Shown here: in pieces, positions 5,760 through 46,163 of the stretch | Layout of the letters: each line of letters starts with the position of its first letter | Position numbering within the stretch: position 1 is the first letter of the stretch | Virus record (IMG/VR): IMGVR_UViG_3300012928_002096 | Span: 1,549-65,548 of that record | Length of the DNA stretch: 64,000 bases | Strand: one strand, 5' to 3' | DNA from: a virus | The notes under the pieces: generated by a model | Databases searched by the model: none | What the model saw: the letters and a program-made list of their open reading frames with translations, nothing else | Told to the model about the DNA's origin: nothing | Translations under genes and position numbers: made by a program

Positions 5760-5760
5760 T

Positions 5761-8385: not shown

Positions 8386-8393
8386 ATTAAGGA

Positions 8394-11419: not shown

Positions 11420-12018
11420 GTTATTATACAGAATTAGATTTACCAGAATTAGAATTATACGATGAATTCAATAAGTTAATGGACAATGGTACTATACATT
11501 GGTTTAGAGATGATTGTCAAGATCAAATTTGTATCAATAGTACAAAAAAAGATCCTGATAATTTTTTATTAGGTAGAGCGAGTTTATATTATGACTGGGA
11601 TAAATCTTATGAAGAAGATGGTAAAATAGTAACTCCTTTACGTAAACCACCGTTACGGGAACAACAGTTTACTACACTTTGCACAGCATTTAAAGGTACA
11701 CTGTTTGAAGAAGTTTACAATGCTCTCACAAAAAAATACAATGTTGGCAGAGTTAGAATAATGAATAGTCAACCAAAGACTTGTTTAACTTGGCATAGTG
11801 ATAATACAACTAGAATACATTATCCAATGAAAACACAAGATGGCTGTTTTATGATTATTGAAGACGAAGTAAAACATTTAGAAAAAAATAAATGGTATCA
11901 TACGGATACACGATACGAGCATACTGCAATGAACGCAAGCAGAGAAACTAGAATGCATTTGGTTGCTTGTGTGTTAGAGGAAAGGTTTGATGGAGAATAC
12001 AACAAAGTTATTAATTAA
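11416..12018 (+). CDS. AspH/Asp-Asn beta-hydroxylase-like 2OG-Fe(II) oxygenase
   Basis: RVRIM...LTWHSD...RIHYP...HTAMN...RMHLV. Confidence 0.8.
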   Translation: MSYYTELDLPELELYDEFNKLMDNGTIHWFRDDCQDQICINSTKKDPDNFLLGRASLYYDWDKSYEEDGKIVTPLRKPPLREQQFTTLCTAFKGTLFEEVYNALTKKYNVGRVRIMNSQPKTCLTWHSDNTTRIHYPMKTQDGCFMIIEDEVKHLEKNKWYHTDTRYEHTAMNASRETRMHLVACVLEERFDGEYNKVIN

Positions 12019-12703: not shown

Positions 12704-12704
12704 T

Positions 12705-13364
12705 ATGGACATTACTTTTGCAGCAATTGACTTAGGTATTAGTGCTTTAGAAAAACAAAAAATATTAAATGAGATACTTAGTGTTCCTGATGATTATTGG
12801 CATTACAATGAATTTAGAGGATGTCATATGCTAGGCATATACAACGGTGGCGGTAAACTAGGTGGTAGAGATGTAGCAGGAAATACTGCTAAAGGTGAAT
12901 TTGATTATACTCCAGCTGGTAAACTATGCCATTACACACGATATACATTAGAAAATAAAATGTTTCCTTTTATGGATCCTGTTGGCAGAGTAACAATACT
13001 ACGTACAAAAGTTAATGCTGGATTGTCTGTGCATTTAGATAGCACCTATGAAGAAATAGGTACATTACAACACAAGTTTAGATATGTTCTAAATGGTAAC
13101 ATTGACAAACTATATTTTTTAGATAGAGATCATAAAAAAATATTTGTGCCTGATTGTTATGATACCTATGTAATGGATGGTAGTCACGCACATAGTTTAG
13201 ATCCTGGCACAGAAGAAAAAATTACACTTTGTATAGGTGCTCCTTGGAAAGGAAAGCCTAATGCTAAGTATGATGAAATATTAAATAATTCATTATTTAA
13301 TTTTAAAGTAAGTAGACCAAGTTATTACAAGCAGGAATGGCTAGATCCATTTTTTAAAAAATGA
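12705..13364 (+). CDS. 2OG-Fe(II)/AspH-like oxygenase
   Basis: GRVTIL...SVHLD...KFRYV...DGSHAHSL. Confidence 0.65.
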   Translation: MDITFAAIDLGISALEKQKILNEILSVPDDYWHYNEFRGCHMLGIYNGGGKLGGRDVAGNTAKGEFDYTPAGKLCHYTRYTLENKMFPFMDPVGRVTILRTKVNAGLSVHLDSTYEEIGTLQHKFRYVLNGNIDKLYFLDRDHKKIFVPDCYDTYVMDGSHAHSLDPGTEEKITLCIGAPWKGKPNAKYDEILNNSLFNFKVSRPSYYKQEWLDPFFKK

Positions 13365-13957
13365 GAATTGTTACACTAGAACAATATGAAGAAAAATTTT
13401 TATCATATTGTAATAAGTTTTATAATTTAGATGATAGGAATAAAGATTGGTTTGATCCTGATTATGCAGGAAGCATACCAAATTCATACAAAAAATATCC
13501 ACTGTGGACTTTTCTCATAGACGACAACGATAACCTAATTGCATTGAGTTGTGTGCAAACACATTATTTTCCAGATGATTGTGCTAGGCTTTTAACAAGA
13601 ACATTTTACAATCCTGAATATAGACGCAAGCATTTAAAATATGAACATAATGAAAAAACACCTGCAATGTATATGCTTGAAGCACAACTTGAATTAACAA
13701 ACTATAAACATAATTTTATGAGTGTAGAATTTATAAGAAGAAAAAATTCACTAGTGAAATTGGCAAAAAAGCTCAACGATAAATATTCTACTAACTGGAA
13801 AGTGCTTGATAATTTATATCACACTTATCCAAACAGTGATGATCCACATAGTTGGCAACCAGTGTGTGTATTACAAACAGATAGTAAATTTCCGTTGAGA
13901 CACATATCGCAAACAGAATGGGAAAGCATATATGGCAGAAAAGTGTTTAATTCATAA
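13361..13957 (+). CDS. GNAT-like acyltransferase
   Basis: LIALSCV...ARLLTRTFYNPEYRRK resembles GNAT motif A. Confidence 0.5.
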   Translation: MRIVTLEQYEEKFLSYCNKFYNLDDRNKDWFDPDYAGSIPNSYKKYPLWTFLIDDNDNLIALSCVQTHYFPDDCARLLTRTFYNPEYRRKHLKYEHNEKTPAMYMLEAQLELTNYKHNFMSVEFIRRKNSLVKLAKKLNDKYSTNWKVLDNLYHTYPNSDDPHSWQPVCVLQTDSKFPLRHISQTEWESIYGRKVFNS

Positions 13958-14591
13958 TACTCGTAGAAGCAGAGTTGCAGGAAACAACGGACCAAGAAGA
14001 CATCAAATGAAAACACACGGTACAGTTACACAAAACGTACCTAAAGATGTATTAGAACAAATTTACCAAATTGCTGCTACATATAACGGAAATGATTTAG
14101 GCGGAGATAATTATCAGATATCACAGCATTGTGATGTAAAAACTGCATTTACTGCCAGTGAATCGTATTCACAAATTTTGTTGCAACAATTAAATGATGG
14201 CGCAGAAAATGAAGTTGATGAAACTAACTACACAACGTGGCGTAAAGACTTACAAACTAATCTAATTGAACAATACTTAGAAAACACGTTTAAAACACCG
14301 TATAGAGCCCGTATAAGCGTTATGCACGGGGGTAATGAACTAAATTACCACATAGACACTGATACAAGTGTGTTATGTCGTGTACAAATACCTGTAATTA
14401 CAGAAGGTAGTTTATTTCAATGGAAAACAAAAACTGAAGAAATTAGTTTAGATATGTTAACCGGCAATAGTTATTTTGTTAACACTGGTTGGCTACATAG
14501 AGTTACAAATGATAGTAACAACATAAGAATTGTTTTAATTTTTGGTGTTGACTATGACAATTTACCAAACAAAGAAAGTTTGCTAATTTGA
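13932..14591 (+). CDS. AspH-like 2OG-Fe(II) oxygenase
   Basis: RARIS...NYHID...RVQIP...GWLHRVTN...RIVLIF; true start may be ATG 14007. Confidence 0.75.
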   Translation: MAEKCLIHNTRRSRVAGNNGPRRHQMKTHGTVTQNVPKDVLEQIYQIAATYNGNDLGGDNYQISQHCDVKTAFTASESYSQILLQQLNDGAENEVDETNYTTWRKDLQTNLIEQYLENTFKTPYRARISVMHGGNELNYHIDTDTSVLCRVQIPVITEGSLFQWKTKTEEISLDMLTGNSYFVNTGWLHRVTNDSNNIRIVLIFGVDYDNLPNKESLLI

Positions 14592-15316
14592 CATATGTTG
14601 ATAAAAATGATTGGGTGTTTGATACAAAACAACTACAAACAGAGTTGCAAAAATTATTAGAAGAAAATAAAGTCAACAATCAACGAGATGGCAGTTTACA
14701 CGGGTTATGCCTAACTTCGCAGGACGGCAGTTTATACAATGGATTTAATTTTAATGTTGCTATACAATATCCTCCGTATGAACAACAAGATAAACAAGAT
14801 CCTAATCCTAAAATTTATTTTGATTTAGAATACGCTAAACAAAACAACATATATCATATGCTTGACTATGAAGTAGAAACAAATGCTTGTACAGGTATAT
14901 GGAAAGAAATAATAGACTTTTTGTACAGTAAAGGAATGAATCCACGTAGAGTAAGACTTTCTTACTTACCACCAGAAGGTGTTATTAATACACATAGCGA
15001 TGGAGGCGGATATAAATTTCATATACCGATATACACAGATGGTACAGATTTTGTACACGGAGACGAATCTTACACATTAGAAGAAGGTGGTAGTTATCTA
15101 GCAAGTGTTAATCCTTATCATTATGTAAAAAATAATGGTGACACAGATAGATGGCATCTAGTTGCTGATGTTTGGGACACAGTAGGAAACTTTAGGATTG
15201 GAAAAGTAGGGCAAGACGAATTTAATAATGAAAAAGTAAATGCAAAACTATGGCGTGATTATGTTAACGGAAAAATAGACACACCAAATAAAATTTTATT
15301 AGGAGCTGAAAACTAA
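14588..15316 (+). CDS. AspH-like 2OG-Fe(II) oxygenase
   Basis: RVRLS...NTHSD...KFHIP...YHYVKNNGDTDRWHLV. Confidence 0.8.
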   Translation: MTYVDKNDWVFDTKQLQTELQKLLEENKVNNQRDGSLHGLCLTSQDGSLYNGFNFNVAIQYPPYEQQDKQDPNPKIYFDLEYAKQNNIYHMLDYEVETNACTGIWKEIIDFLYSKGMNPRRVRLSYLPPEGVINTHSDGGGYKFHIPIYTDGTDFVHGDESYTLEEGGSYLASVNPYHYVKNNGDTDRWHLVADVWDTVGNFRIGKVGQDEFNNEKVNAKLWRDYVNGKIDTPNKILLGAEN

Positions 15317-16152
15317 TGCAAATGGACGCAGTAAGATATGAAATAGATTTTAACACTATGAGTGACTCAGAAATTGTAAACTGGGGTAAAAATATAGTAA
15401 AAGATAATGTTGTACTTGTTAGAAACCAAAACCTAGACGAAGCAGGCATACTAAGAGTTTGTGAATTAGTTGGCAATGTGCTGAAACCAAATCAATTTTT
15501 TATGCATCCAGATTACCCTGGCTTATTTAGAGTAACAAACGAACGTAAGGATGGCGATAAGATTGGTATCTTTGCAGACAAAGAACTAGACTGGCACAGT
15601 AACGGTAATGGTAGGAAAAGCGGCAAAGAGTGTTGTGTAGCCTTATATTGTATTCGTCCTGGTGAAAACAGTGTAACTAGTTTTTGTGATACTAGACAAG
15701 CATATAGAGATCTAAGCGAAGAAGATAAAAACTTTTACAAGCAAATAGATTGTACATTTAAATTTGAGAACGGAACATTTTATGACTTAGACGAAGATGA
15801 CAAAGAATTAAAAATGTTTCAAGGTGGCGCAAGAGATTTCAAGTATGGTGTTACAAAACCTTTGGTATATACGCATCCATATGATGGTGATGAAGGATTG
15901 TACTTTACATTTCATTACATTAGAGAAATGTGGCTTAGAGATAATCCAGAAGAGAAGTTGGACAAGCAACCTATCTTTGATAAATTAATGGCACATATTT
16001 TCCAAGACAAATATATTTGGCATCACGATGATTGGCAACCAGGTGATTTTATTTTTATGGATCAGTTTCATAGTATTCATAAACGTAATGCAGTCGAAGG
16101 TGATAGATTCTTATATAGACTAAGTTTTGATTATGAAGGTTGTTATGGATAA
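15316..16152 (+). CDS. TauD/TfdA-family dioxygenase
   Basis: DWHSN, TSFCDT, HPYDG, WQPGDFIFMDQ...HKR. Confidence 0.8.
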   Translation: MQMDAVRYEIDFNTMSDSEIVNWGKNIVKDNVVLVRNQNLDEAGILRVCELVGNVLKPNQFFMHPDYPGLFRVTNERKDGDKIGIFADKELDWHSNGNGRKSGKECCVALYCIRPGENSVTSFCDTRQAYRDLSEEDKNFYKQIDCTFKFENGTFYDLDEDDKELKMFQGGARDFKYGVTKPLVYTHPYDGDEGLYFTFHYIREMWLRDNPEEKLDKQPIFDKLMAHIFQDKYIWHHDDWQPGDFIFMDQFHSIHKRNAVEGDRFLYRLSFDYEGCYG

Positions 16153-16847
16153 TGCATTACTACGAACTAGAATGGACAGATGATTTCAAACTTATGTTTG
16201 AAATACTAACAAAGTTTTACGTTAGTATGCCTAGTATTCTAGATGATGAAACTCCAAGATTGCCTATTATTTTTGATAAATTAAAAGATGCATACGAAAA
16301 TCCTTTTAACAAGCATAAACAAGCATTATGGTTTGATAGAATAAAAGAACCAGATCAGGAAGTAAAATTAATACTTGAATTATTTGACAAATACAAATTC
16401 AAGCACAATATAGACTATTTTACACAATCTGGACATAAAGATATTACAGGTGAATTTTTACCACATAGACATATGCCAGGAAAAGTTAGACGTGGTGTTA
16501 CAGATGATGGTGCTGCTGTAGATAAAGTACAAACCGATGCAGTAGGCGAAAAAGGTACAGAAATACAAACTACAAATGTACAATTTACATTTCCGTATAT
16601 TAATTCACATTTAGGCGAAACACAATGGTCAGCAACATACGATGTGCCTTTCTTAGAAAGACGTAGATTTACAGAAGAAGAAATTACTGGCAGATACACA
16701 CTTAACACAAAGCCTGTTTTGTTTGATGTTAAGTCTTGGCACCAAGGACGTAATACAACAAATAATGAAGATAGAGTATTATTTGGTATACCAACTTTAT
16801 TTAATAATGTTAAAGAAGCAGTTAAATACCTAAGGAGATTACAATGA
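16140..16847 (+). CDS. 2OG-Fe(II)-like oxygenase, atypical HxH site
   Basis: LPHRH...QFTFP...PVLFDVKSWHQG...RVLF. Confidence 0.55.
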   Translation: MLWIMHYYELEWTDDFKLMFEILTKFYVSMPSILDDETPRLPIIFDKLKDAYENPFNKHKQALWFDRIKEPDQEVKLILELFDKYKFKHNIDYFTQSGHKDITGEFLPHRHMPGKVRRGVTDDGAAVDKVQTDAVGEKGTEIQTTNVQFTFPYINSHLGETQWSATYDVPFLERRRFTEEEITGRYTLNTKPVLFDVKSWHQGRNTTNNEDRVLFGIPTLFNNVKEAVKYLRRLQ

Positions 16848-17518
16848 ATAGATTGAGATATAAATTCGGAGATAGATTTGCAGAAACTAAAGGATACGAT
16901 GGGTTTGCTGCTGATAAAGATGAATTAAATAACTTCTTTGAACAAAAGGTAAAAGGAAAATTAGGTGATCATAACACTGTTGGTATAGATAGTACAAAGC
17001 AACATATATACAATGTTTGTTATGATTGTAATATACCTTTATGGAACGAAATATATAATCGTGTTACAAATATAGGTACGATGTGTGATGTAAAACTAAA
17101 TTGGGATGAAATAAAACATTGTATGCGTTTTACTTTTATATGGATGCCGCCAGGAGGAGATCTTACTCCACACACAGCTCATTACTTCAGAGCATTAAGT
17201 GCATTCAATACACCATTACGTGGCAAAACAGAAATAAGTTTCTACGAACATTTACCACAAGAAGATGGAACACACAAAGTCGGCAAAAAATTAGAAACGC
17301 ACGAATATTTCAATCCTAATTTTTTAAATGTAAATCGTTATCACGGTGTTGCAAATGATACAGAAGAAGAACGTATGATATTAAAAACACATTTACTTAT
17401 TGTGCCTTGGCAAAAACTTGTTAAAGCATACGAAGGTGATGATATTATTAATATGTTTGAAGAAACAGTTCCTTGGCAAAAACAAAAGAAAGAAACACAA
17501 GTCAAACGTCATGGATAA
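16844..17518 (+). CDS. 2OG-Fe(II)-like oxygenase with HxA motif
   Basis: MPPGGDLTPHTAH...FNTPL...LNVNRYHGV...RMILK. Confidence 0.6.
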   Translation: MNRLRYKFGDRFAETKGYDGFAADKDELNNFFEQKVKGKLGDHNTVGIDSTKQHIYNVCYDCNIPLWNEIYNRVTNIGTMCDVKLNWDEIKHCMRFTFIWMPPGGDLTPHTAHYFRALSAFNTPLRGKTEISFYEHLPQEDGTHKVGKKLETHEYFNPNFLNVNRYHGVANDTEEERMILKTHLLIVPWQKLVKAYEGDDIINMFEETVPWQKQKKETQVKRHG

Positions 17519-18299
17519 TTTTAACAAAGAAGAAATAATTAATCACGCACGTGAACACGGATGGTGGTTACAAAGAGATGTGCAAATGGATAGGAAGCAA
17601 TTTATGGAGTTTTGTAACCATATTGCTACACCTTGGTCGTGGAAAATACACGATATGCACGGAGAAGGCGATCTTAACGAAGAAGAAGTTGTAGATTGGT
17701 CAAGTGAAACTAGATTTATGAAACGTAGTTTGCCTTGGCACGCTGATAATCCTTGGAGTAAAGATTTTCAGTTTCCTTTACGTGCATTTTATGCAGTAAA
17801 TATACCTGATCCAAAAGACGGACCTTTAGAGTTTCTTAATCAAACAAAATGGTTTGAATCACTTGGCGAAAATCAAAAAGCAGACTTTAGATATATGAAA
17901 GTACTTGTGCAATGCTACAAAGGAAATTGCCAACCTTATTACGATGACTTTGTAAAAGTAAATCCAATTACAGGTAAAGAAAGTTTAAACTGGGGAAGTA
18001 AAGTTGTATACAGCGATGTATATGGGTTAGAACCTGATGAAGGACACGCACATAATCATTTTTCATTTACAATGGCAATTATGCGTGATAGGAATATTGT
18101 TCCTGATGAAGAAATATCTACTTGGTTTCAAGATATGATAGATAAAGGGCATCACGATATTGTTGAATTTAAAGAAGGTGATCTGCTTGTTAATGATAAT
18201 TGGACAACATTTCATTATAGAAGAACATTAACAAACCCTAACGAACGTTTACTTTATAGGAAAACATTGTTGCAACCATGGCAAAAATATATTGGCTAA
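17511..18299 (+). CDS. TauD/TfdA-family dioxygenase
   Basis: WHADN, NPITG, EFKEGDLLVNDNWTTFHYR...RLLYR; start moved to ATG 17511. Confidence 0.8.
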   Translation: MDNFNKEEIINHAREHGWWLQRDVQMDRKQFMEFCNHIATPWSWKIHDMHGEGDLNEEEVVDWSSETRFMKRSLPWHADNPWSKDFQFPLRAFYAVNIPDPKDGPLEFLNQTKWFESLGENQKADFRYMKVLVQCYKGNCQPYYDDFVKVNPITGKESLNWGSKVVYSDVYGLEPDEGHAHNHFSFTMAIMRDRNIVPDEEISTWFQDMIDKGHHDIVEFKEGDLLVNDNWTTFHYRRTLTNPNERLLYRKTLLQPWQKYIG

Positions 18300-18742
18300 C
18301 GATAAATGTAATTGGAAAAGATAATTATTTTAATGATTATCTCACAAATCCAGCAAAAAGATTTCAAACTGGTACAGGTAAAGCCTTAGGCAAAGATTAC
18401 TGGAAAATGTATGAACAGGCATATTTGTATGCTAAACACCAAGGACATATTATACTACGAGCAAAAGTTATTAACAAACGTAACGTGTTAAAAATATATC
18501 AAATATGGGATAGTAAAGATGTTCGTGAACAATGGGAACAAAAAGTTGATCCTAAATACTTTACTGCAACAGTACCACTTATTACATATCAATATCCTGT
18601 AAATGAAAAACAAAAAAACAAAATATTTGACTTAGTATTAAAAAGTAATAAAGTAATTTTACAGGCAGTAAGAGAAGATCATAGAACGCCAGGAATGACT
18701 ATAGGCGATCCTTTAAAGTTAGATGTACTTTATAAAACTTAA
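18278..18742 (+). CDS. Hypothetical protein, last gene of the enzyme island
   Basis: 154-aa ORF overlapping the upstream stop. Confidence 0.6.
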   Translation: MAKIYWLTINVIGKDNYFNDYLTNPAKRFQTGTGKALGKDYWKMYEQAYLYAKHQGHIILRAKVINKRNVLKIYQIWDSKDVREQWEQKVDPKYFTATVPLITYQYPVNEKQKNKIFDLVLKSNKVILQAVREDHRTPGMTIGDPLKLDVLYKT

Positions 18743-31236: not shown

Positions 31237-32133
31237 TTAAGTTCCCCAGGCATTTCCGAATAAGCTGATGTGGAGTCTAGGCGAGAACCTCCACCCTCGT
31301 TCCATACAGAGGTCCGCCACCTCTTGTACGTTGAGAGTGTATTCTTCCGACCTACCCCCAAGCGGCATAAGATATACAGGAACGTTGACACCTGCTTCAC
31401 GATAGGCACTAACAGCTCTAGCGACTTCGTCAACATCGTCTTGATCAGCGACAACAAACTTGAGATACATATCGCTGCCGTTAACACGCCTATAGTCAGC
31501 AGCCACAGCAGGCTTAATAGCAGTTTCCCAAGGTTCTCCGCTAACGCTAAGTTTTGGGGAACAAGACCAAGTGACTTCAAATCTGTCTTGAGTGTTGAGG
31601 TAGTCATAGAAATCATCTTTAAGATGTTGTGTAGTATTTGTTTCAAATGTGACATTTTTCAAATCCCTCATCCGTGGATGTTCAAATAATTCTACGTACA
31701 GTCGTTGCCACGCCAACAACGGTTCGCCACCAGTCATAATCAAATGTACATCTTGGCCATTATCCATTGTCCATTTGCCTTCTGGTAATAAACTTAGTAA
31801 ATGTTCTACAACTTCATCTACATCTTTAAGCATATTGAAATGTTTAAATTCTGGATAGATACTTGCATATGTATCACAACCTGTGTGTACAATAGGCAGA
31901 TCATTAAATTCTTTTGTAGTTTCGTGAATGCCATCAGCAAGTAATTGCTTTACTTCTGCATTGTAACGTTCACCACGCTTGTGTTGTTCCCAACGATCGC
32001 CAACGCTTTTATCAACACCAAAATTCATACAGCGAAAGTTACAACCGAAGGTACGTAGGAATACACTAGGTACTCCTACAAACTTGCCTTCGCCTTGTAC
32101 ACTATAAAATGCTTCACTATAGCGTAACTTCAT
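31237..32133 (-). CDS. queE: 7-carboxy-7-deazaguanine synthase QueE (radical SAM)
   Basis: EAFYSVQGEG..GVPSVFLRTFGCNFRC...GCDT, MTGGEP, FETN, SCSPKL, FSPRLHISLFG. Confidence 0.93.
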   Translation of the reverse strand: MKLRYSEAFYSVQGEGKFVGVPSVFLRTFGCNFRCMNFGVDKSVGDRWEQHKRGERYNAEVKQLLADGIHETTKEFNDLPIVHTGCDTYASIYPEFKHFNMLKDVDEVVEHLLSLLPEGKWTMDNGQDVHLIMTGGEPLLAWQRLYVELFEHPRMRDLKNVTFETNTTQHLKDDFYDYLNTQDRFEVTWSCSPKLSVSGEPWETAIKPAVAADYRRVNGSDMYLKFVVADQDDVDEVARAVSAYREAGVNVPVYLMPLGGRSEEYTLNVQEVADLCMERGWRFSPRLHISLFGNAWGT

Positions 32134-32297
32134 TATAGTTCCTCCGCAATACCGAGGACTTCAGCAACAAGTAAACCTAAGGCTAACCAACCCCAACTAC
32201 CTGTTGCTAAAGCAACTACGCATCCTGCGATACGTACACCACTTTTTACTAAACTAATATAAAAGTGTTTTTTACTTACATCTACTGGTTCTGCCAT
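32133..32297 (-). CDS. Small membrane protein
   Basis: MAEPVDVSKKHFYISLVKSGVRIAGC...AEVLGIAEEL*, 54 aa, TAATG-coupled on both sides. Confidence 0.7.
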   Translation of the reverse strand: MAEPVDVSKKHFYISLVKSGVRIAGCVVALATGSWGWLALGLLVAEVLGIAEEL

Positions 32298-33004
32298 TAT
32301 GACCCCTGTGCAAATTGCTGTTGTAGTTTAACGTTATCGATAAACTCTTTTTTAGTTGCTGGATCATTTTTAAATGCACCACGTAACACTGTAGTTTGTG
32401 TTAAACTACTGTGTGCTTTGATACCTCTATTTTCACAACAACCGTGCGTGGCTTGTACATAAACACCAACATTTTCACTTCCTGTATGTTTCTGAATTTC
32501 ATCAGCAATCATTACATTTAGTTCTTCTTGTAGTGTTCCACGCATAGCACACCACTGTGCAATACGTGTGTATTTACTCAAACCTAGTAACTTAGGACCA
32601 GCAATAATACCAATGTATGCTACACCTTTAACAGTTTGGTGATGATGTGAACACAAACTTGTAAGTTCACTACGCACAACCAACATACCTTCATAACCTT
32701 CACCTTCATTTACATAATTAGGAAAAGCATTAGGTGCTGGCATTGGATTATATCGACCAGACATAATTTCGTTGACATACATTTTTGCCATACGTCTACC
32801 AGTGTCAATACTGTTAGGATCGTTCTCAGTATCGATAATCAATGTTTGTAAAACATCTTCAAACTTATAAGCAAGTTCGTTCTTGATCTCTTCAAGTTCC
32901 CACTCGCTTATGTGTTCACTAATATTATCATTTGCAAAAAAACGCACGTTATTTTTTTTAAGTCTTTCACGTACAACTTGACTGACTTTTACTTCTTCTG
33001 TCAT
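32297..33004 (-). CDS. folE: GTP cyclohydrolase I
   Basis: SLCSHH, GLSKYTR, LQEEL, ATHGCCENRG. Confidence 0.95.
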   Translation of the reverse strand: MTEEVKVSQVVRERLKKNNVRFFANDNISEHISEWELEEIKNELAYKFEDVLQTLIIDTENDPNSIDTGRRMAKMYVNEIMSGRYNPMPAPNAFPNYVNEGEGYEGMLVVRSELTSLCSHHHQTVKGVAYIGIIAGPKLLGLSKYTRIAQWCAMRGTLQEELNVMIADEIQKHTGSENVGVYVQATHGCCENRGIKAHSSLTQTTVLRGAFKNDPATKKEFIDNVKLQQQFAQGS

Positions 33005-37033: not shown

Positions 37034-37507
37034 TTAATAATCCTTTTTTGCTTCTAAGTTAGGATAAATGATTGAACAGCCGTTTTCGCCATCTTCGGCG
37101 ACATCAATTACAACAAACCGGCCTGGATATTTGTTGTTAATCTGTGTATACAAGTCATCTGCTATCATTTCACAAGACTTGTGGTTGAGTTCGATAGTTT
37201 TATCATCATATAAACTTTCTAACCAACGCTTGAATTGAATAAATTCAATATCTCTATCATTGTGCGTAACTTCAATTTGCACTTTGAAATGAAAGATGTG
37301 TCTATGTGCTACACCTAAAAAACTTACATCGTCCCAGCCACCTGTTGCTAGTGCTGGATCGTCTTTTGCCGCAGGATATAAATGTATACCTTCTTTACGA
37401 AATGTAACCCATATACTACGTTTTGCAATTTCTAATGTTTTATTCAATTTTGCATTTTCCTCTCTAAAGCGCCTTAACATATATTCATAATAACGTTCTT
37501 GGCTCAT
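37034..37507 (-). CDS. QueD/PTPS-paralog T-fold protein, DpdL-like (putative CDG decarboxylase)
   Basis: EGIH, LGVAHRHIF (LxxxHRHxF in place of QueD CxxxHGH), SCEMIA, VAEDGENG. Confidence 0.7.
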   Translation of the reverse strand: MSQERYYEYMLRRFREENAKLNKTLEIAKRSIWVTFRKEGIHLYPAAKDDPALATGGWDDVSFLGVAHRHIFHFKVQIEVTHNDRDIEFIQFKRWLESLYDDKTIELNHKSCEMIADDLYTQINNKYPGRFVVIDVAEDGENGCSIIYPNLEAKKDY

Positions 37508-37511
37508 ATTG

Positions 37512-38015
37512 TCAACCTATGATTTCGTCTGTGGTGTATTTAGACCAATCAGTAAAAACAGCCTTCTCTTTTAAATCGTGCATCCTATGCACCCATACAC
37601 CCGGATTAGTTGCATCAAAGTCTTTGTCATCTATTTTAAGACACGCATTATATCCTAGTTGACTTATGTATGGCAGTTTTGCACTAATCATTGGAATAAA
37701 ACGATTGTATTCAGTGTAACCGGATTCTAATACCCATTCTACATCTTTAATATCAAAATCTAATGTTATCCAAAAACCTTCTTTCAACAATGGAAAGATC
37801 ATATTATCATATGCTTCATTTGGTTCAAAGCTCATATTGGCACCAATATAAATATGATCAACACCTGCTTTGTTTGCGTGTTCAACAATATCTTCAAAGT
37901 TTTGTACACCTACAACGAACAGCGTTTTCTTACCAAACTTTGGCGTGTGTTCTACTTCTGTGCCAATAAAAAAGTTTACACTTTCATTTACACCGCTATC
38001 ATAATCTCTTTTCAT
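37512..38015 (-). CDS. Unknown protein inside the deazaguanine locus
   Basis: Likely start ATG 38015 (ATGA overlap); GTEVEHTP, HIYIGANMSF, NPGVWVH. Confidence 0.75.
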   Translation of the reverse strand: MKRDYDSGVNESVNFFIGTEVEHTPKFGKKTLFVVGVQNFEDIVEHANKAGVDHIYIGANMSFEPNEAYDNMIFPLLKEGFWITLDFDIKDVEWVLESGYTEYNRFIPMISAKLPYISQLGYNACLKIDDKDFDATNPGVWVHRMHDLKEKAVFTDWSKYTTDEIIG

Positions 38016-38185
38016 TGCTGTTTCACCTGATATATTTCGTTCCACGTATTCCAACGTTTTTTAATGTATTCATTTAACTGTTCTGGCGGATAATTTTTTT
38101 CTTTCATATTTGCAATAATCTTATCCAAATCTTCTAAAGCCATTTCTAATGCAAGTAACCTAAGTTCTTTTTCATTGGTATCCAT
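38012..38185 (-). CDS. Small hypothetical protein (below ORF-track cutoff)
   Basis: MDTNEKELRLLALEMALEDL...YQVKQQ*, 57 aa, overlaps both neighbours. Confidence 0.55.
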   Translation of the reverse strand: MDTNEKELRLLALEMALEDLDKIIANMKEKNYPPEQLNEYIKKRWNTWNEIYQVKQQ

Positions 38186-38384
38186 TTACATATATGCCTT
38201 TGTCTATTAGTTGTCTTTCTATTCTATAAATTTCATCTTTTAACCAAAGTTTTTCTGTTTTTAACCGTCTTAACTCTTCGGTAATATGATGAGTATATAA
38301 CTTTTGTATTTCTGTGTCAAGTGCTCTGTGTTTTTTTCTTAATTCTTCAAGGTGAGATATTAATTTATCGTTGTCGTCGCCCAT
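38172..38384 (-). CDS. DUF465/YdcH-like coiled-coil protein
   Basis: LEELRKKHRALDTEI...LKTEKLWLKDEI. Confidence 0.7.
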   Translation of the reverse strand: MGDDNDKLISHLEELRKKHRALDTEIQKLYTHHITEELRRLKTEKLWLKDEIYRIERQLIDKGIYVNGYQ

Positions 38385-39842
38385 TTAGATCTCCTCAAAT
38401 AGTTCTCCGAACTTTGTGCTTGCGTTTACAGTCTTTTTTCCTACATTAAGTCTTGTGCCTATAACTTGCATCCAAAACTTAGAATATTTTGTTATTAAAT
38501 CTAAACTTTTTTGTCTATCTTTTAAACTAAAGATCTCATCAACAACTTGTTTAAACTCTATACGTTCAAAACGTTCGTCAATCAACATATAAGGATATTC
38601 TCCTGTGTCATAACGTTCGTTTGCTCGTTGTGTGCTTTCAATGTGCATCCATACATTATGACCCATTTGTAATGCATAACTAAATGAGTCCCAACTTGTT
38701 TTGCCTTCTTTACCAATTTTATTCAAATCGCCTGGTTTGTAAATACAAATGTCTTTTATTTGACATTCTTTACTAATAGGAGAGTCTTCAAATGCTTTCA
38801 AAAGACCATCTGTTTCAAGTGCATCTTTAAATGTTCTTGTGTCTGTTGCATACTTCTTATCATCAGCGCCTGGCGACATCATATAACTCCACTTGCCACG
38901 ATCTTCAATACGTATTGTGTGATAAACTTGTCCATTTGCTGTTGCTAAGAAAGGCGATGCACAGTCATATGTAATCATAAAGTTTTTATTATGATACTTA
39001 CGCACTGCACGTTGGATATCTGTAAGCAATACAGCCCATTCTAACTTACTTGTGCCTAAGAAGTGCATAACATCGTGAACACCTTCTTCTAGTAACCCAT
39101 CGTGTATTTGATGCACAAGTCTACGCAATATCAAATCAACATCGCACATATTTTGTCCACCCATTGCCCAGCCATTAAAGTGTGTATCTGGAAACTGTGC
39201 TGGATCGCAATAGTGCTTGAACTCTTCATACCAACTATCTGCATCTGCGTGGTTACTACCTTGTAATACGTTCAGCACTTTGAAGTTGCCACGTCTATTT
39301 GCCATATAGTATTTTGCGTTTATGTGTGTTGCATCTACAGCATCTTGATAACTGTGAATATTTGCTGCCTTTGCTGCCTTAGGATCTTGGAAAGTCCAAG
39401 TTGGAATATCCAACATCATTCCATAGTCCATATATTCTTCCATCCAGTTAACAACAAGTTCACGTTTCTTTTGTGCTTTTGGACATTTAGGATTAGTCCA
39501 GTCACCTTCCCAAAGTCCTTTTGCAATTTGGAAACCACCAGAGTCACCAAGCAACCAACTATTTTCTCTATCGCGGTTGCGTAACATATCTTCTTTTTCT
39601 ACGTGTTTGTTTATATCTAAGTCTGCGTGTCCTGCAGAATACAAAGCCCACTTATAATGAAATGCTCCTTTATCAGGATTCAAAAAGTTTAGACTTTCTA
39701 CTTCATTAAGTCCAGATGGCACACGATTGTAATCAACGTATTCACCGAAACGTTGTTTACCTACAAATGTAGCATAAAAGCCACTTATACTTGGCAGAAA
39801 CACAGCATAATCATTCTGTGTTTGTGTTAGATCCTTTTTCAC
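38385..39842 (-). CDS. dpdA: TGT-fold transglycosylase, DpdA-like (7-deazaguanine insertion into DNA)
   Basis: LGDSGGFQ, MMLDIP, NVLQG, GWAMGG, HFLGTS, YDCAS; folE/queE context. Confidence 0.7.
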   Translation of the reverse strand: MKKDLTQTQNDYAVFLPSISGFYATFVGKQRFGEYVDYNRVPSGLNEVESLNFLNPDKGAFHYKWALYSAGHADLDINKHVEKEDMLRNRDRENSWLLGDSGGFQIAKGLWEGDWTNPKCPKAQKKRELVVNWMEEYMDYGMMLDIPTWTFQDPKAAKAANIHSYQDAVDATHINAKYYMANRRGNFKVLNVLQGSNHADADSWYEEFKHYCDPAQFPDTHFNGWAMGGQNMCDVDLILRRLVHQIHDGLLEEGVHDVMHFLGTSKLEWAVLLTDIQRAVRKYHNKNFMITYDCASPFLATANGQVYHTIRIEDRGKWSYMMSPGADDKKYATDTRTFKDALETDGLLKAFEDSPISKECQIKDICIYKPGDLNKIGKEGKTSWDSFSYALQMGHNVWMHIESTQRANERYDTGEYPYMLIDERFERIEFKQVVDEIFSLKDRQKSLDLITKYSKFWMQVIGTRLNVGKKTVNASTKFGELFEEI

Positions 39843-40230
39843 GTATTGCTCTCTTTTCTAAACTTAACTTATCTTTTTGACTCATTACATATGCGGCGCC
39901 TGCAAGAATTAAAATTGCGCCAGCTTCGGCAACTAGCACCCAAGGATTTGCGTCTTTACTGTGTAGCACAATTAATCTACACAATGCTGTCATTGCAATT
40001 ATAATAGGCAATGTAACAGGTATTCTGTTGCTAATAAAGTATGCACCAACCATACCTACAATCTCAGTATATATAAAAAGCAGAAATAAATCTGCAAGTT
40101 CTATCTTAAGATCCATAATCATAGAATATACATCTAAACCTGCCGCAACAACAGTAAGTATGCCTATTATAGAAAGCATACCTTTTTCTGTCATTACTGT
40201 AGTCCAGTGTAATCTATTTTTTTCTTGCAT
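39811..40230 (-). CDS. psiE: PsiE-family membrane protein
   Basis: ADLFLLFIYTEIVGM...IPVTLPIIIAMTALCRLIVL. Confidence 0.8.
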   Translation of the reverse strand: MQEKNRLHWTTVMTEKGMLSIIGILTVVAAGLDVYSMIMDLKIELADLFLLFIYTEIVGMVGAYFISNRIPVTLPIIIAMTALCRLIVLHSKDANPWVLVAEAGAILILAGAAYVMSQKDKLSLEKRAIREKGSNTNTE

Positions 40231-40979: not shown

Positions 40980-41008
40980 ATTATACTAACTTTTGCTTTA
41001 TTTGTCAA
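40980..41008 (-). promoter_or_regulatory. Perfect-consensus sigma70 promoter
   Basis: TTGACA-AATAAAGCAAAAGTTAG-TATAAT. Confidence 0.85.
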
Positions 41009-41759
41009 GTGTTTGTTTCAATTTTGTGTTATAATAAACTGCTGCCGACAATGTATTTAGATTAATATTTTTTTCTGATGCCATTTTTAATAGAGCCTTT
41101 GTGTCTTTTGGAAAACACATTCCACCCCATCCACGTATACCTTCTTCTGGCCATACATAACTATGACTTGAACCTATACGTTTATCATCTGTAATACCTG
41201 CTTGCACTTCTTCATAGTCTAAATTATATGCTTTACAAAAATCAAAAATTTCATTGAAGAAACTTACTTTAGTTGCTAAGAAAGCATTTCTAAAATATTT
41301 TATAGCAATAGCTTCTTCTGGTGTAACAATGTTTATACGGCATTGAGGCCAATTAAAACTATATTGGTCACGCCAGTAATCTGTATCACCACTTAAAATA
41401 ATACAGTCTAATTGTTTAATATCATTCATATAGTTTTTTGCTCTAAGAAACTCTGGAGAAAAACATAATCTATGATTAGGAAAATTATTTTTTATATCTT
41501 GCCAGCCTTGTAAACTTATTGTGCTTTTGATTAATATAGGTGTTGTTTCATTACAAAGTTCTATAGTGCTGTACACAGCACTTACATCACAACTACCATC
41601 TTCTGCTGATGGAGTAGGTACACATATTACCACAGCACTTGTATTTGAAAAATCAGCATATTTGTCTTTAGGTGGATCGTGTATTTCAATTTCTCTTCTA
41701 TGGTCTTTGAATAGTAATTCGTATGCCTGTCCAACAAATCCGTATCCTGCTATAATCAT
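40998..41759 (-). CDS. ugd: UDP-glucose/GDP-mannose 6-dehydrogenase-like (N-terminal and central domains only)
   Basis: IAGYGFVG, ICVPTP, IKSTI, FSPEFLR, KYFRNAFLATKV, GWGGMCFPKD. Confidence 0.85.
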   Translation of the reverse strand: MIIAGYGFVGQAYELLFKDHRREIEIHDPPKDKYADFSNTSAVVICVPTPSAEDGSCDVSAVYSTIELCNETTPILIKSTISLQGWQDIKNNFPNHRLCFSPEFLRAKNYMNDIKQLDCIILSGDTDYWRDQYSFNWPQCRINIVTPEEAIAIKYFRNAFLATKVSFFNEIFDFCKAYNLDYEEVQAGITDDKRIGSSHSYVWPEEGIRGWGGMCFPKDTKALLKMASEKNINLNTLSAAVYYNTKLKQTLDK

Positions 41760-42469
41760 TGTGCTAACTTCGCTTCCTGAAAGTATCCAAGTCTTTCCCA
41801 AGTATCACGATAATCTTTAACATTGAAACAACGTTTTGTATCTAGCTTGACTGCTAATGGCCAATCATTACCACCTTCAACAATTTTGTCACCAAAGAAA
41901 TAAATTTTATCATTCTTGTTAAAATCTTCTAAGATTTGACTTTTATCTCCACCTTTACGATATATGTCTATTCCTGTTTCGCCACCTATAGTTGCAGTTA
42001 TATCAGGAAATTCTAAATTAATTTGGAAAGCAATACTTTCACGTTCTTTGTTTTGCAAATCGTGTTGTATATAAAGTTTACGTTCACCTAGTGTGCAATT
42101 ACGTCCTACTATACTAAAATTAATTGTACCTGTTCTTTCTTCTATATGATTACCTGTACGTAATGGAAAATTACTTGCTTGTAACCAACCGTGCATTAAA
42201 TTATACAATTCTTTAGGAGCATCAAATGTTTTACTTGCTACATTTTGTCCTTTTTTGTAGACATCATTGCCACTGCAATTATAACAAGACTCAACATTTT
42301 CACAAATATCTTCACCAAGCTGTTCGACTGTCTTATTATAATCGCTACCAGTTACTAACCATACTTTATTATGTGTAATAAATGATTTAAAAAATGTTTT
42401 AAACTCTGGATGAATAGTTTGTCTACTTGGTGTAAGTGTGCCGTCAACATCGAATATAAATTTATTCAT
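41756..42469 (-). CDS. Phosphomannomutase (eukaryotic-type, HAD-IIB)
   Basis: FDVDGTLT, VTGSD, IEERTGTINFSIVGR, FFGDK..EGGND. Confidence 0.88.
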   Translation of the reverse strand: MNKFIFDVDGTLTPSRQTIHPEFKTFFKSFITHNKVWLVTGSDYNKTVEQLGEDICENVESCYNCSGNDVYKKGQNVASKTFDAPKELYNLMHGWLQASNFPLRTGNHIEERTGTINFSIVGRNCTLGERKLYIQHDLQNKERESIAFQINLEFPDITATIGGETGIDIYRKGGDKSQILEDFNKNDKIYFFGDKIVEGGNDWPLAVKLDTKRCFNVKDYRDTWERLGYFQEAKLAQ

Positions 42470-42876
42470 TATACTTCACATACTCTCTTTCTTAAATCAC
42501 TAGTGCTAAATCTATGATCACGTTTATTAAAATACAAATCTATTTCACGCTTACGACAAATGTCTTTACCTGTAAAATCTTTGTCTCTGTATTCTTCTCC
42601 AAGTATTCTAACATCTATATGATACATTGTCAATATATCTTCTAGGTCTTTTTCAGTGCCATAAGGAATAATTTCATCAACATACTTTACACCTTTTAAT
42701 TGTGTATAGCGTTCGACAATAGTTTGCACAGGAGCATTTTTTTCTGATCGATCTACACTAGGATCCATTTGTAATGCACATATTAAATAATCGCATTGTT
42801 CTTTTGCTTCACGTAACATTTGTACGTGTCCTGCGTGTAATAAATCAAATGTTGAACAAGTAAATCCTACTTTCAT
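42469..42876 (-). CDS. TagD-like cytidylyltransferase
   Basis: FDLLHAGH (HIGH-type), ERYTQL...VDEII, RFSTS. Confidence 0.88.
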   Translation of the reverse strand: MKVGFTCSTFDLLHAGHVQMLREAKEQCDYLICALQMDPSVDRSEKNAPVQTIVERYTQLKGVKYVDEIIPYGTEKDLEDILTMYHIDVRILGEEYRDKDFTGKDICRKREIDLYFNKRDHRFSTSDLRKRVCEV

Positions 42877-43217
42877 TAATGATTCCGCCTACCATCAAAT
42901 GCACAAACAAAGTAAAGTTCTTGGTCTTTACCTTGATACATATCAGATTCTACTCTATGATGTATACCATCTTTAATCAATACAACATCACCAGGACCAA
43001 CTGCCATAGGCTCATCATTTAGATACATTGTGCCTTTACCTCTAATAAAGAAATAAATTTCTTCTTGTCCTTTGTGTATATGTCCTGACGTAGATTTGCC
43101 AGGCTTCATTGTTGTACTACTTAATACTAAATTTTGTAACAGTGTGTTATCTTTAACAATGTATCGTTCGTCTTGTTTAGCGATAACTCCACCAATATCT
43201 TGTATATCTACTTTCAA
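42876..43217 (-). CDS. Cupin-domain protein (mannose-6-phosphate isomerase-like)
   Basis: GHIHKGQEEIYFFIRG...GDVVLI..GIHHRV. Confidence 0.85.
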   Translation of the reverse strand: MKVDIQDIGGVIAKQDERYIVKDNTLLQNLVLSSTTMKPGKSTSGHIHKGQEEIYFFIRGKGTMYLNDEPMAVGPGDVVLIKDGIHHRVESDMYQGKDQELYFVCAFDGRRNH

Positions 43218-43498
43218 AAGTCTATCTCCCTTCCTTTATATTCCCAAGTTCCATATCTAGTTGGTTCGGCTTCTTTTGGCCCGCCATATTCTTTAGCTTT
43301 TTCTTCTGTAACTTTTTGTTCAGGTATATCAGGGTCTTTACGTGCATATTTTATATCACAATATCCACAAACAACATAATGTCCATCGTGTGGTATTCTA
43401 AGATAAACTTTTGGGTGGTCATTGTTATCTCCACTACACGCAACACTGTCGCCATCTATGTAAATAATGCGTTCTTCAAATCCTTCGATTCTTTCCAT
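43214..43498 (-). CDS. zf-CHCC (NDUFS6-like) + DUF1674 (SdhAF4-like) fusion
   Basis: VACSGDNNDHPKVYL...VVCGYC followed by EYGGPKEAEPTRYGTWEYKGREIDF; GGAG RBS before ATG 43498. Confidence 0.8.
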   Translation of the reverse strand: MERIEGFEERIIYIDGDSVACSGDNNDHPKVYLRIPHDGHYVVCGYCDIKYARKDPDIPEQKVTEEKAKEYGGPKEAEPTRYGTWEYKGREIDF

Positions 43499-43499: not shown

Positions 43500-46163
43500 T
43501 TAACTCCATTCAAATAAATTGTTAAATGTTGTTTTTTGCTTTGTGCTTTCTAAGTCATATTTCAACACACCAATTAAGTTGTCTAGTTTGTTGTCAATAA
43601 TAACTTCTTCCATTGCATCGCCATCAAAAGGAAGCTCTTTAAACCAATCAGGAAGTCTTAGTTGATCTGTTGGATAAGCAACAGAAGTATATCCTAATGG
43701 ATTTTGTTTCAGTTTACAAACAATAACTTTCATACCATCTACAATTTCTTGGGAATATTTATCACCATTCATACGTTTCAATGTATTCCAGTTGATGCTT
43801 GCTCTTACGTGTCCAGGCATATTTGCTTTGCCTTGCTTTTCTTCTAGTCGTTGATAATGTCCAATCTTGTTTGCACGTTTGGGTGAACCTTTCTCAAATC
43901 CTGGACGTTCTTTAAACTCACGCCTAAATTCACTTATACTTTCTAGTAATTCTTTTTCGGGCTGTACTGCTAATACCATATCAAGCAATGTTTTCAAATA
44001 GTTTTGCATAAACACTGGAGTATCACTACGCTTTAAGTCCAAGCCCATAGCTTTAACTTTACCTAATGCACCATCCTTATCTTTTCTATCACCTTCTAAG
44101 TCATACACTCGCACTGCATAACGTTTCTTTGTAATAAACAAGCCTGTGTCTGCAACAACTTCTCTTGCGGCAGCAATAACCTCACTACGTGGGCGAGGAC
44201 AATGAAATGCGTCACGCATAAAATCTGGAAATGTTGTGTTTGCTTGTTCGCATAACTGGTCATACAATGTAATTACATTATCTTTACCCCAAGGCACAGT
44301 ACCAGCAGTAATTTCTTCTTCAAGTACAGGATACGCACTAAAGTAAACAGAGTCTGTATCACCATATATAATTGCTTTACCTACGTGATCATATTCGCCT
44401 GTAATAATCTTATTCACTTCACTTGCCATATGCTTTGCAATTTGTCTGCCAGTTAGTGTTGTTGACTGTCCAATACGTTTATCAAAAAATCTACAGCCTG
44501 GATTCAAAATAGCACCATACAAACTGTTCAAGTTAATCTTTTTGACAAGTTGTCTTTTGTCCCAAAATGCTATTTCTGTTTCGTTGCCTGCATCAATTGC
44601 TTTACGCATTTTTGCTTGTAATTCTTTACGCTCTGCATACCAACGTTTCAGCAAACCTGGAATAACACCTTCGACTTCTGTTGTAAACACAGTACCGTTA
44701 GCACTAAGCATCCACGGTTGATGGCTATCAAAAATAAGTTTGTATATTTCTGCACCACTTAGCACGTGGCTTGTACCATCTTCTAAATCTAATGTAAGTG
44801 CAACGTCTTTGCGTTGTTCCATTACAGCATCATATTCTAATGTAGCAAACTTACCTTCCCAACTTGCCGCAAAACTTTTCTTTTCAAGTGTTTGTGCATT
44901 GTGTAAAAACTCTTCAGTCAAGTCTGGACGTATTTGTCCAATAATAGTTTCTGGAGCCATATTCATTGCACGAATAATACTTGGATATAGACTGTTCAAG
45001 TCCATACTACCAATCCACTTATGTACACCTTTTTTAGGATACGCAACATAAGCACCTGCCGCGGCAGTTTGCCCTTCGTGTTGTACTCTGTTAGGTGCTT
45101 GCATACCTCTTCTGTGTGCTTCATTAACAATTGCTTGCTCTGTAACTGCAACTGCTCCTGCTGTTGTTTGTAATAACACAGTATTATCGTGTGCAATTTC
45201 ATTTGCAAGATCAATAAAGCGTAACTTCTTATCAATTTTATCTAGTAGTGCAACGTCTTGTCTATTGTATTCAATAAACTTTTTAAAGTCGTTGTTGTAA
45301 AGTTGATCAAGTGTGCCTTCATACACAGTCTTGTTTTCACCAACTTCCATTTCACCAATAGCATCAAGTCTGTATGTGTGACGTTCTTCATATGTATATT
45401 TGCGATACAGTTCAAGATAGTCCATATGCACTCTACCTATTGTATCAAACGTTTCAGCAGTTTTGCCAAACTTTTCAAACTCTCTACGTCTTGGAAGTTG
45501 CTTCCACAAACAAAAGCGCCTAGTGTCATCTTTGCTCAACACCCGTGAAACACGATTTACAGTGTAAGGAATATCATAACCTTCACTGTTCCAGCCGCTC
45601 AATATATCTGCATCTTCTATAACATCAAGAAATGCTTGTAGCATATCTCCTTCATTTTCATACAAATATGTATTATCAAAATCTGCACATTCTGCTTGTG
45701 CTTCTTCCATAGTTAGTGTTTTGGGCGGCAATGCAAATGTTACCAATGCATCTAACCATTGTAAATGCACAGTAATAGCAGTAATTGGCATAAAAGGATC
45801 GCTTGGATCAGCAAAGCCTCTATCTGGATCAAAATCAGTCTCAATATCAAAAAAGCAAACATTTAGTTTAGGAGCATCTTGGTTGAGATAGTGTTCACTC
45901 AAACATTGAAATATTGGATTTACATCCGACTCAAACATTTTTTTGCCTTTGTTAATGGCAAGTTCTTTTCTAAAATCTTTTGTATTTTTACAAACTACAC
46001 GTTGTAGTGGATCTCCATAAATGCTTTTGTATTTGCCACGTGGATCTTCATAGTAAAATGTATACTTTGCTTGATATTCAGTAAAATGCCTTTTACCATC
46101 CTTGCGTTCTACTGCACGGATAATATCTGCATCTCTATCAAAAAAAGCGTCTACGTATGGCAT
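43500..46163 (-). CDS. polB: Family B DNA polymerase
   Basis: Exo FDIETD, NSEGYD; Pol DLNSLYPS, KINLNSLYG, YGDTDS. Confidence 0.97.
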   Translation of the reverse strand: MPYVDAFFDRDADIIRAVERKDGKRHFTEYQAKYTFYYEDPRGKYKSIYGDPLQRVVCKNTKDFRKELAINKGKKMFESDVNPIFQCLSEHYLNQDAPKLNVCFFDIETDFDPDRGFADPSDPFMPITAITVHLQWLDALVTFALPPKTLTMEEAQAECADFDNTYLYENEGDMLQAFLDVIEDADILSGWNSEGYDIPYTVNRVSRVLSKDDTRRFCLWKQLPRRREFEKFGKTAETFDTIGRVHMDYLELYRKYTYEERHTYRLDAIGEMEVGENKTVYEGTLDQLYNNDFKKFIEYNRQDVALLDKIDKKLRFIDLANEIAHDNTVLLQTTAGAVAVTEQAIVNEAHRRGMQAPNRVQHEGQTAAAGAYVAYPKKGVHKWIGSMDLNSLYPSIIRAMNMAPETIIGQIRPDLTEEFLHNAQTLEKKSFAASWEGKFATLEYDAVMEQRKDVALTLDLEDGTSHVLSGAEIYKLIFDSHQPWMLSANGTVFTTEVEGVIPGLLKRWYAERKELQAKMRKAIDAGNETEIAFWDKRQLVKKINLNSLYGAILNPGCRFFDKRIGQSTTLTGRQIAKHMASEVNKIITGEYDHVGKAIIYGDTDSVYFSAYPVLEEEITAGTVPWGKDNVITLYDQLCEQANTTFPDFMRDAFHCPRPRSEVIAAAREVVADTGLFITKKRYAVRVYDLEGDRKDKDGALGKVKAMGLDLKRSDTPVFMQNYLKTLLDMVLAVQPEKELLESISEFRREFKERPGFEKGSPKRANKIGHYQRLEEKQGKANMPGHVRASINWNTLKRMNGDKYSQEIVDGMKVIVCKLKQNPLGYTSVAYPTDQLRLPDWFKELPFDGDAMEEVIIDNKLDNLIGVLKYDLESTKQKTTFNNLFEWS

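Follow-up and report, generated by a model that had tools for sequence, protein, structure and literature searches.

Two small protein families are linked to the entry points of the respiratory chain, NDUFS6 (zf-CHCC) to complex I and SDHAF4 (DUF1674) to complex II. In the human SDHA-SDHAF4 complex, D107 of SDHAF4 mimics a dicarboxylate, F108 fills the dicarboxylate site, and E84 and E92 provide the anchor to R171; mutating E84, E92, D107 and F108 impairs SDHAF4 binding or SDHAF2 release (PMC10784507). The bound C-terminus blocks the substrate, and the ordered segment upstream of it clashes with the SDHB site. Truncated human SDHAF4 retains binding but is poor in SDHAF2 release, the disordered N-terminus being needed for full release. 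The role of SDHAF4 has been called cryptic, and there are bacterial homologs outside the usual models (review, PMC10238741). In Paracoccus, the NADH-oxidising module is stabilised by NDUFS6, whose Asp48 is linked to NDUFS8 through a Ca ion (PMC11522691). Both families are already known, as are phage genes supporting host energy metabolism. To our knowledge, viral support of photosynthesis is well known and viral control of respiratory complex assembly is not. The gene analysed here, P0002, specifies 94 amino acids (aa), in which an NDUFS6-like zinc finger is followed by an SDHAF4-like tail. It is located in the window, a stretch of 64,000 nt of viral DNA (IMG/VR record IMGVR_UViG_3300012928_002096, positions 1,549 to 65,548).

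A sequence-only reading of the window had proposed one open reading frame (ORF) that fuses both families, with no strand given. The ORF is real and is located on the minus strand, and both halves score above the curated Pfam cut-offs: zf-CHCC (PF10276) with 38.3 bits versus 27 (E 1.4e-9, residues 17-51), and DUF1674 (PF07896) with 46.4 bits versus 23.5 (E 5.1e-12, residues 54-94). The DUF1674 motif terminates exactly at the stop codon, and the exchange of Asp for Thr noticed in that reading is present (T84). All four CHCC ligands had been assigned correctly, but the first spacing is C-x6-H (C21, H28) and not x7. In PHROGs and NCBIfam, P0002 was not recognised. Among solved structures, the first half is related to NDUFS6 of Rhodobacterales and Paracoccus, and the last 29 residues are related to human SDHAF4 (8DYD). 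The gene is built as follows:

43214..43498, minus strand: P0002, 94-aa fusion ORF of NDUFS6-like zinc finger, linker and SDHAF4-like tail (ORF call, Pfam)
43346..43450, minus strand: zf-CHCC domain, residues 17-51 (Pfam, structure comparison)
43436-43438, 43415-43417, 43367-43369 and 43358-43360, minus strand: Zn ligands C21, H28, C44 and C47
43355-43357, minus strand: D48, aligned with Asp48 of Paracoccus NDUFS6
43295..43339, minus strand: charged linker, residues 54-68 (15 residues; alignment)
43217..43294, minus strand: SDHAF4/DUF1674 tail of 26 residues, 69-94, equivalent to human SDHAF4 83-108
43217..43222, minus strand: terminal Asp93-Phe94, the active-site plug residues (human D107 and F108), with the stop directly after

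The phage location could be corroborated. P0002 is a host-type gene amid phage genes (a polymerase and a cupin gene) in a virus record, is intact, and has nonsynonymous differences (pN) far below synonymous ones (pS). For eight fusion genes, pS/pN values of 0.51/0.087 for the zinc finger and 0.54/0.054 for the tail indicate purifying selection. The identical protein is present on 78 contigs, and those read are marine and have the same neighbours; a chimeric assembly or chance origin was rejected on these grounds. Related zinc finger-tail fusions were detected on nine IMG/VR contigs, and in the 81-aa forms the linker is shorter by 13 residues than in P0002.

The surprising unit is the tail rather than its pairing with the zinc finger. 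Phage tails of this kind have a signature of their own, Thr for Asp98 and an acid (Glu or Asp) for Cys105 in human numbering, and are called Thr-type here. Fragments aside, the Thr-type tail forms the C-terminal end of 105 distinct ORFs of 53 to 292 aa, which fall into 20 unrelated classes. They include a coiled-coil protein of T4-like phages, DUF1289, a phrog_661 protein, a zinc ribbon, and hydroxylase-like and lipase-like proteins, and for 13 of the 20 classes tail-less homologs are known. NqrM-like and CDGSH-like identities for two carriers were not confirmed by Pfam. Thr-type carriers with enough context are phage-like, while a few are located on contigs too short to judge. In a pattern scan of IMG/VR DNA only the central motif was fixed and the ending was not required; 59 of the 62 viral matches end exactly eight residues further on in Asp-Phe-stop. 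The three matches without this ending also lack the rest of the motif, leaving 59 genuine copies, which span 12 carrier classes. A search for longer carriers revealed none but was insensitive, since longer carriers are known from another scan.

Comparison of related loci indicates how the carriers are exchanged. In L209 and L210, the tail is carried by a second gene located behind a 51-aa coiled-coil gene. In L134 and L207, which have the same flanking genes, the coiled-coil gene itself carries the tail and the few residues preceding it in the second gene. In L165, a zinc finger immediately precedes another tail carrier; in L194, a zinc finger fusion is immediately preceded by the tail-less homolog of a different carrier. 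In-frame insertions or deletions thus swap the carrier while the tail persists. A DNA tree of the tail, based on 78 columns, was too weak for counting transfers.

Purifying selection acts on the tail peptide, because over 67 tails pS is 0.66 and pN 0.13, RNA structure is missing, and the complete genome of a relative, phage G003, contains one copy. The start codon of the next gene overlaps or abuts the tail stop in 40 of the 62 viral matches, and the codons for G-R-E are Shine-Dalgarno-like; these features would fit a tail kept at the DNA or RNA level, because it acts as a mobile repeat, forms a hairpin or provides the ribosome site for the following gene, the peptide being incidental. This explanation is largely refuted and highly improbable: residues are fixed although synonymous changes approach saturation, the tail RNA does not fold stably (z-scores -0.84 to +0.77), G003 has its single copy, the same residues are present in copies followed by an intergenic gap, and the frame and the terminal Asp-Phe are always kept. 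A mobile palindromic DNA element, similar to Rickettsia palindromic elements, was rejected as well, as neither a stable hairpin, nor conservation at the DNA level, nor many copies per genome were found.

In cells, the Thr-type tail is nearly absent. A scan of 185,579 genomes for its motif gave one confirmed locus, L177, on the 335-kb contig PBPT01000016.1 in a Marinimicrobia bin. The polymerase on this contig is 77% identical to that of the window, and the contig is most likely a co-binned jumbo phage and not Marinimicrobia DNA. The scan was not fully sensitive, since it missed P0071 of the cellular genome G001 (L125:6001-6165). P0071, located at the usual site beside rsmB, is the only chromosomal DUF1674 gene found with both Thr98 and Glu105 and the sole DUF1674 copy detected in G001, while 29 other genomes read from the same order are all Asp-type. 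G001 was considered as a donor of the phage tail, but convergence or transfer in either direction may account for the similarity.

For the fusion itself, 401 genomes of the class of G001 were searched, a class whose gene content and family distribution indicate Alphaproteobacteria. While 268 of them match either half, none of the 150 best matches spans both, although any fusion would have come out at the top. The genomes sampled include G045, which is marked as unpublished and whose sequence enters no claim. In a set of 1.84 billion cluster representatives, none of the matches listed covers both halves, but clustering can hide fusions and does hide P0002. A wide occurrence of the fusion in hosts, considered in the sequence-only reading as a possible objection, was therefore not observed in the cell genomes searched. 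Neither half was found in 50,697 phage records or in any cultured phage, one search giving only noise at E ~3. A literature search, mostly without subscription papers, yielded no report of phage DUF1674/SDHAF4, of phage NDUFS6, or of the tail as a mobile module.

Cellular homologs typically consist of a short low-complexity N-terminus and the same 26-residue tail. In 6 of 79 cellular DUF1674 loci, sdhC or sdhA is present within 1.5 kb, and in L432, L433, L440 and L454 the DUF1674 genes are within ~1.5 kb of sdhC and sdhA. Such proximity supports a probable link of bacterial DUF1674 to complex II. In cells, phosphoglycerate kinase was also found fused to an Asp-type DUF1674 tail (443-446 aa; L266:1498-2838, G271; P0094). 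The tail is portable in cells too.

The residues of the tail were compared with human SDHAF4. E70, E78, R81, Y82, K88 and R90 of P0002 are equivalent to E84, E92, R95, Y96, K102 and R104. Ten SDHAF4 residues contact SDHA through their side chain or the terminal carboxylate; eight of them, among them E84, E92, D107 and F108, are retained. T84 replaces D98, Y87 replaces R101, and E91 replaces C105, which makes a backbone contact only. The position of R101 is occupied by Tyr in P0002 and mostly by Asn, Ser or His in other phages. Thr98 and acid105 are fixed together in 59/59 viral copies and E84 is kept in 53/59; since E92 belonged to the search pattern, its conservation count is not independent. 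On the side of the partner, motifs with the equivalents of R171, H407 and R451 are conserved in 22 aligned bacterial SdhA. A complex prediction for the tail (A2), bacterial SdhA (A3) and flavin adenine dinucleotide reached a score of 0.02 versus a mark of 0.32 and was used neither for nor against binding.

Two contact positions changed together and fixed could indicate that the tail was retargeted. The new partner might be a further SdhA/FrdA-family flavoprotein, NadB or AprA for example, or SdhA from a host lacking an SdhAF4 of its own. Position G97 points in the same direction, because it is invariant in 58 Asp-type sequences compared but may be Lys or Asn in phages, and so does the uncertainty about the host that follows from an Fe(II)-trafficking gene in G003, a mainly gamma- and betaproteobacterial gene. 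Retargeting is nevertheless improbable: E84, E92, R95, D107 and F108 are kept, the SdhA motifs facing them are conserved, and the Thr/Glu type is also found as an ordinary chromosomal gene beside rsmB.

In the zinc finger half, the ligands C21, H28, C44 and C47 are invariant across 48 aligned sequences. The model of residues 1-56 (predicted local distance difference test, pLDDT, 84.8) shows the NDUFS6 beta fold, and in Foldseek it matches best to chain R of alphaproteobacterial complex I (9g83_R and 8qby_R; probability 1.00, template modelling score 0.69-0.72). D48 is kept in 14/14 fused zinc fingers. A model of the whole fusion from eight sequences was poor (pLDDT 45). Searches of the ESM Atlas gave zinc-finger clusters only, at 0.82, a lead at best.

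Stand-alone zinc fingers are frequent on viral contigs, and tail-less ones of 59-60 aa share the 90% cluster of P0002, whose zinc finger falls within a virus-only tree group (38 rows, support 88/84). A single clade of fused zinc fingers was rejected (approximately unbiased (AU) test, p 0.00025), at least three changes being forced by well-supported branches, while a single clade of zinc-finger-borne tails was not rejected (p 0.26). The scattered fused zinc fingers can mean repeated fusion, loss or recombination, as judged from these trees. Unfused zinc fingers were detected within ~0.6 kb of a tail gene in L165, L182, L188 and L189, and at ~2 kb in four Asp-type loci. On contigs of T4-like marine phages (L297, L304, L309 and L323), a stand-alone Asp-type SDHAF4 gene is present with a zinc finger of a separate zf-CHCC subfamily ~2 kb off.

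The sequence-only reading had the fusion tuning both respiratory entry points. A role at host complexes I and II is likely, but the idea that the fusion itself matters is not supported, because the tail has about 20 unrelated carriers, tail-less zinc fingers occur in the same 90% cluster, and in G003 both modules are 37 kb apart. A bifunctional adaptor, with the zinc finger docked on complex I and SdhA held alongside by the tail to coordinate both entry points, could draw on the rejected single clade, from which the pairing may have recurred, on the zinc finger as carrier of 10 of the 59 viral copies, on unfused zinc fingers close to tail genes, and on purifying selection in both halves. Besides the arrangement in G003 and the tail-less alleles, 19 other carriers including lipase-like and hydroxylase-like proteins and the 13-residue difference in linker length argue against it; a scattered tree is also obtained by recombination or loss, with one clade of zinc-finger-borne tails still compatible with the data. 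The adaptor is therefore an unlikely explanation.

For P0002, chances are about even that it joins two host-derived respiratory modules kept by the phage for separate reasons, an SdhA cap and a complex I stabiliser. By analogy with the human and Paracoccus structures, the tail would be a minimal SdhAF4 that binds free flavin-loaded SdhA through E70/E78 and inserts its terminal Asp-Phe into the dicarboxylate site. Covering the flavin would lower the formation of reactive oxygen, and capped SdhA would be kept ready for assembly while the supply of host subunits and Fe-S clusters is disturbed. The zinc finger would act as an NDUFS6-like subunit that binds and stabilises the NADH-oxidising module of host complex I. 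Since the tail would need just a start codon and a free C-terminus, an upstream gene could inherit it after an in-frame insertion or deletion. Zinc fingers are among the commonest carriers, probably since zinc finger and tail genes are often neighbours, and the fusion would be a tolerated by-product of gene neighbourhood. Expression during infection and an effect that protects rather than inhibits are presumed. Both the G003 genes for IscU, IscA, SufE and ferredoxin and the unaltered Asp-type copies in T4-like phages are in line with a supportive role.

Several points weigh against this interpretation. Human D98 contacts T308/E309 of SDHA and R101 contacts D194; the changes to Thr and Tyr could weaken or redirect SdhA binding. 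Human SDHAF4 needs its disordered N-terminus for full SDHAF2 release, and in place of this long region P0002 has a folded zinc finger and a 15-residue linker. SdhA-SdhE complexes of bacteria come apart easily (PMC10238741), so that bacteria may not need a release factor. The function of bacterial DUF1674 is itself deduced from the human structure. Finally, a plug that caps SdhA also blocks it, and the direction of the effect cannot be fixed from sequence.

The last point leads to a tail acting as inhibitor: as a dominant-negative plug it would trap SdhA, decrease succinate oxidation and divert carbon or redox state to phage production, with Thr98, acid105 and a bulky carrier preventing hand-over to SdhB. 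Substrate block and SDHB clash in the human complex, the truncated SDHAF4 that binds yet releases SDHAF2 poorly, and the tolerance of carriers of up to 292 aa are in line with this idea. Thr98 and acid105, invariably combined in the viral copies and among cells known from G001 only, suggest a selected change of behaviour. However, the changes remove two polar contacts, unlike what is expected for a tighter inhibitor, other phages have unaltered stand-alone Asp-type copies, related phages are equipped for maintenance, with genes for Fe-S assembly and an NDUFS6-like subunit that is intact, and the Thr/Glu type is the only copy detected in one cell. Inhibition is considered a minor possibility.

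Taking the phages together, it is somewhat more probable than its opposite that marine jumbo and T4-like phages have made a portable effector tag of 26 residues, with a signature of its own, out of the SdhAF4 active-site plug. This tag would pass between unrelated carriers and, combined with a viral NDUFS6 lineage, allow the phage to control how host complexes II and I are assembled or how active they are. Giant viruses appear to have captured the factor separately.

Asp-type copies were found on 53 viral contigs, as stand-alone genes of 49-63 aa in T4-like phages, as fusions, and as giant-virus genes. On viral contigs, an IscA-like Fe-S protein and NUDIX hydrolases bear the Asp-type tail (L295:2337-2852; L298:2425-2979; L340:8156-8710). 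Bins of giant viruses (GVMAG) contain Asp-type SDHAF4 of 85-98 aa with an Asp-Tyr ending (L296:10377-10634, L307:6784-7050, L312:179-442, L314:4344-4640, L329:33-308); by eye, their N-termini resemble mitochondrial presequences, and L296 also has a gene for RNA polymerase Rpb5. From these sequences, viruses seem to have captured the SDHAF4 factor more than once, giant viruses separately.

Around P0002, the following features were recognised:

43504..43507, minus strand: GGAG, putative ribosome-binding site, 6 nt 5' of the P0002 ATG and within the end of the polymerase gene (sequence)
43500..46163, minus strand: family B DNA polymerase (PolB), upstream neighbour (Pfam)
42876..43217, minus strand: cupin gene, its TTG start overlapping the last codon and stop of P0002 (Pfam)
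40998..42876, minus strand: cytidylyltransferase, phosphomannomutase-like and UDP-glucose dehydrogenase-like genes, which travel with the P0002 slot

P0002 starts 1 nt beyond the PolB stop, and the codons of G89-R90-E91 in its tail are a possible ribosome site of the cupin gene. The placement directly after DNA polymerase, emphasised in the sequence-only reading, is true here, but the slot is variable. It contains a tail-less zinc finger in L030 and other zinc finger subtypes with tails in L158 and L183, and the fusion is found in other gene contexts in L003, L185 and L194.

Elsewhere in the window, GTP cyclohydrolase I is encoded at 32297-33004, and neighbours in 31237-33004 and 37034-39842 resemble, by eye, genes of the 7-deazaguanine pathway; 31237-32133, 37034-37507 and 38385-39842 gave no Pfam match at the thresholds used. 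A long plus-strand gene run (235-18742) appears by eye to include radical SAM, short-chain dehydrogenase, desaturase and dioxygenase types, and G003 has similar blocks. A PsiE-like membrane protein (39811-40230) is below the NCBIfam cut-offs, with a PsiE Pfam match on record, and a PsiE gene is also present near the DUF1289 carrier in L127.

The window is part of a 67-kb virus record estimated to be 19% complete, corresponding to a genome of about 350 kb. The best cultured matches of its PolB are Sinorhizobium phage Phosso (50%) and Agrobacterium phage Atu_ph07 (48%), the next group being at ~42%. G003 is a complete relative of 342,607 bp with a polymerase 59% identical to the window PolB; its tail is carried by a 229-aa protein and its zinc finger is a separate protein of 51 aa. 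G003 also has genes for IscA, IscU, an Fe(II)-trafficking protein, ferredoxin and SufE (L383:13765-14094, L384:7198-7575, L395:12736-13020, L396:1516-1851, L398:346-777), which constitute an Fe-S maintenance kit. A search of five phage records, four of them fragments, gave neither SdhE nor NDUFA12. A match to the NDUFS4 family in L460 (G005:C1:81507-81674), ~4 kb from a tail gene, has 17.6 bits, is below the cut-off and may be noise.

The host of the P0002 phage is likely alphaproteobacterial, as had been suggested before, because among 14 control genomes both families were found in Caulobacter alone and because the polymerase points to Rhizobiales phages. Some uncertainty comes from SDHAF4 homologs in some gammaproteobacteria and from the Fe(II)-trafficking gene of G003.

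The phage tails amount to a natural truncation and mutagenesis series, suggesting that selection keeps 26 residues and a free Asp-Phe end, and they name positions 98 and 105 as changing together. The function of bacterial SdhAF4, and whether the cap helps or blocks complex II, become directly testable. The tail is also a clear case of a peptide module that survives while its carrier gene is repeatedly replaced, and its presence on about 20 proteins suggests that phages manage host respiration during infection.

Compared with SDHAF4/Sdh8/DUF1674 (PF07896; human 8DYD, 8DYE), P0002 shares the 26 C-terminal residues including E84, E92, R95, Y96, K102, R104 and the free D107-F108. It differs in being encoded by a phage and in the exchanges D98 to Thr, R101 to Tyr, C105 to Glu and, in the 94-aa form, G90 to Glu; instead of the disordered N-terminus of SDHAF4, the phage tails are attached to a zinc finger or to about 19 other proteins. 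With NDUFS6/zf-CHCC (PF10276; Paracoccus denitrificans chain R, 8QBY, 9G83; Rhodobacterales nuclear magnetic resonance structures 2JRR, 2JVM), the CHCC ligands, the beta fold and Asp48 are shared, and like the bacterial NDUFS6 set the zinc finger of P0002 is without the mitochondrial N-terminal domain. Its virus-only tree group, the shorter loop before His28 and the C-terminal SDHAF4 tail set it apart, complex I binding being a prediction.

Auxiliary metabolic genes such as cyanophage psbA/hli and phage iscU/iscA maintain host energy metabolism. Like these, P0002 is host-derived, small, under purifying selection, located in a phage operon, and probably serves energy metabolism; unlike them, it specifies assembly or accessory factors of respiratory complexes, one of which is reduced to a peptide tag without its own gene. 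Rickettsia palindromic elements are inserted in-frame in proteins, and the tail resembles them as a short coding module in many unrelated proteins. In contrast to these elements, it has no hairpin, is conserved at the protein level, is present in one copy in G003, and is always C-terminal.
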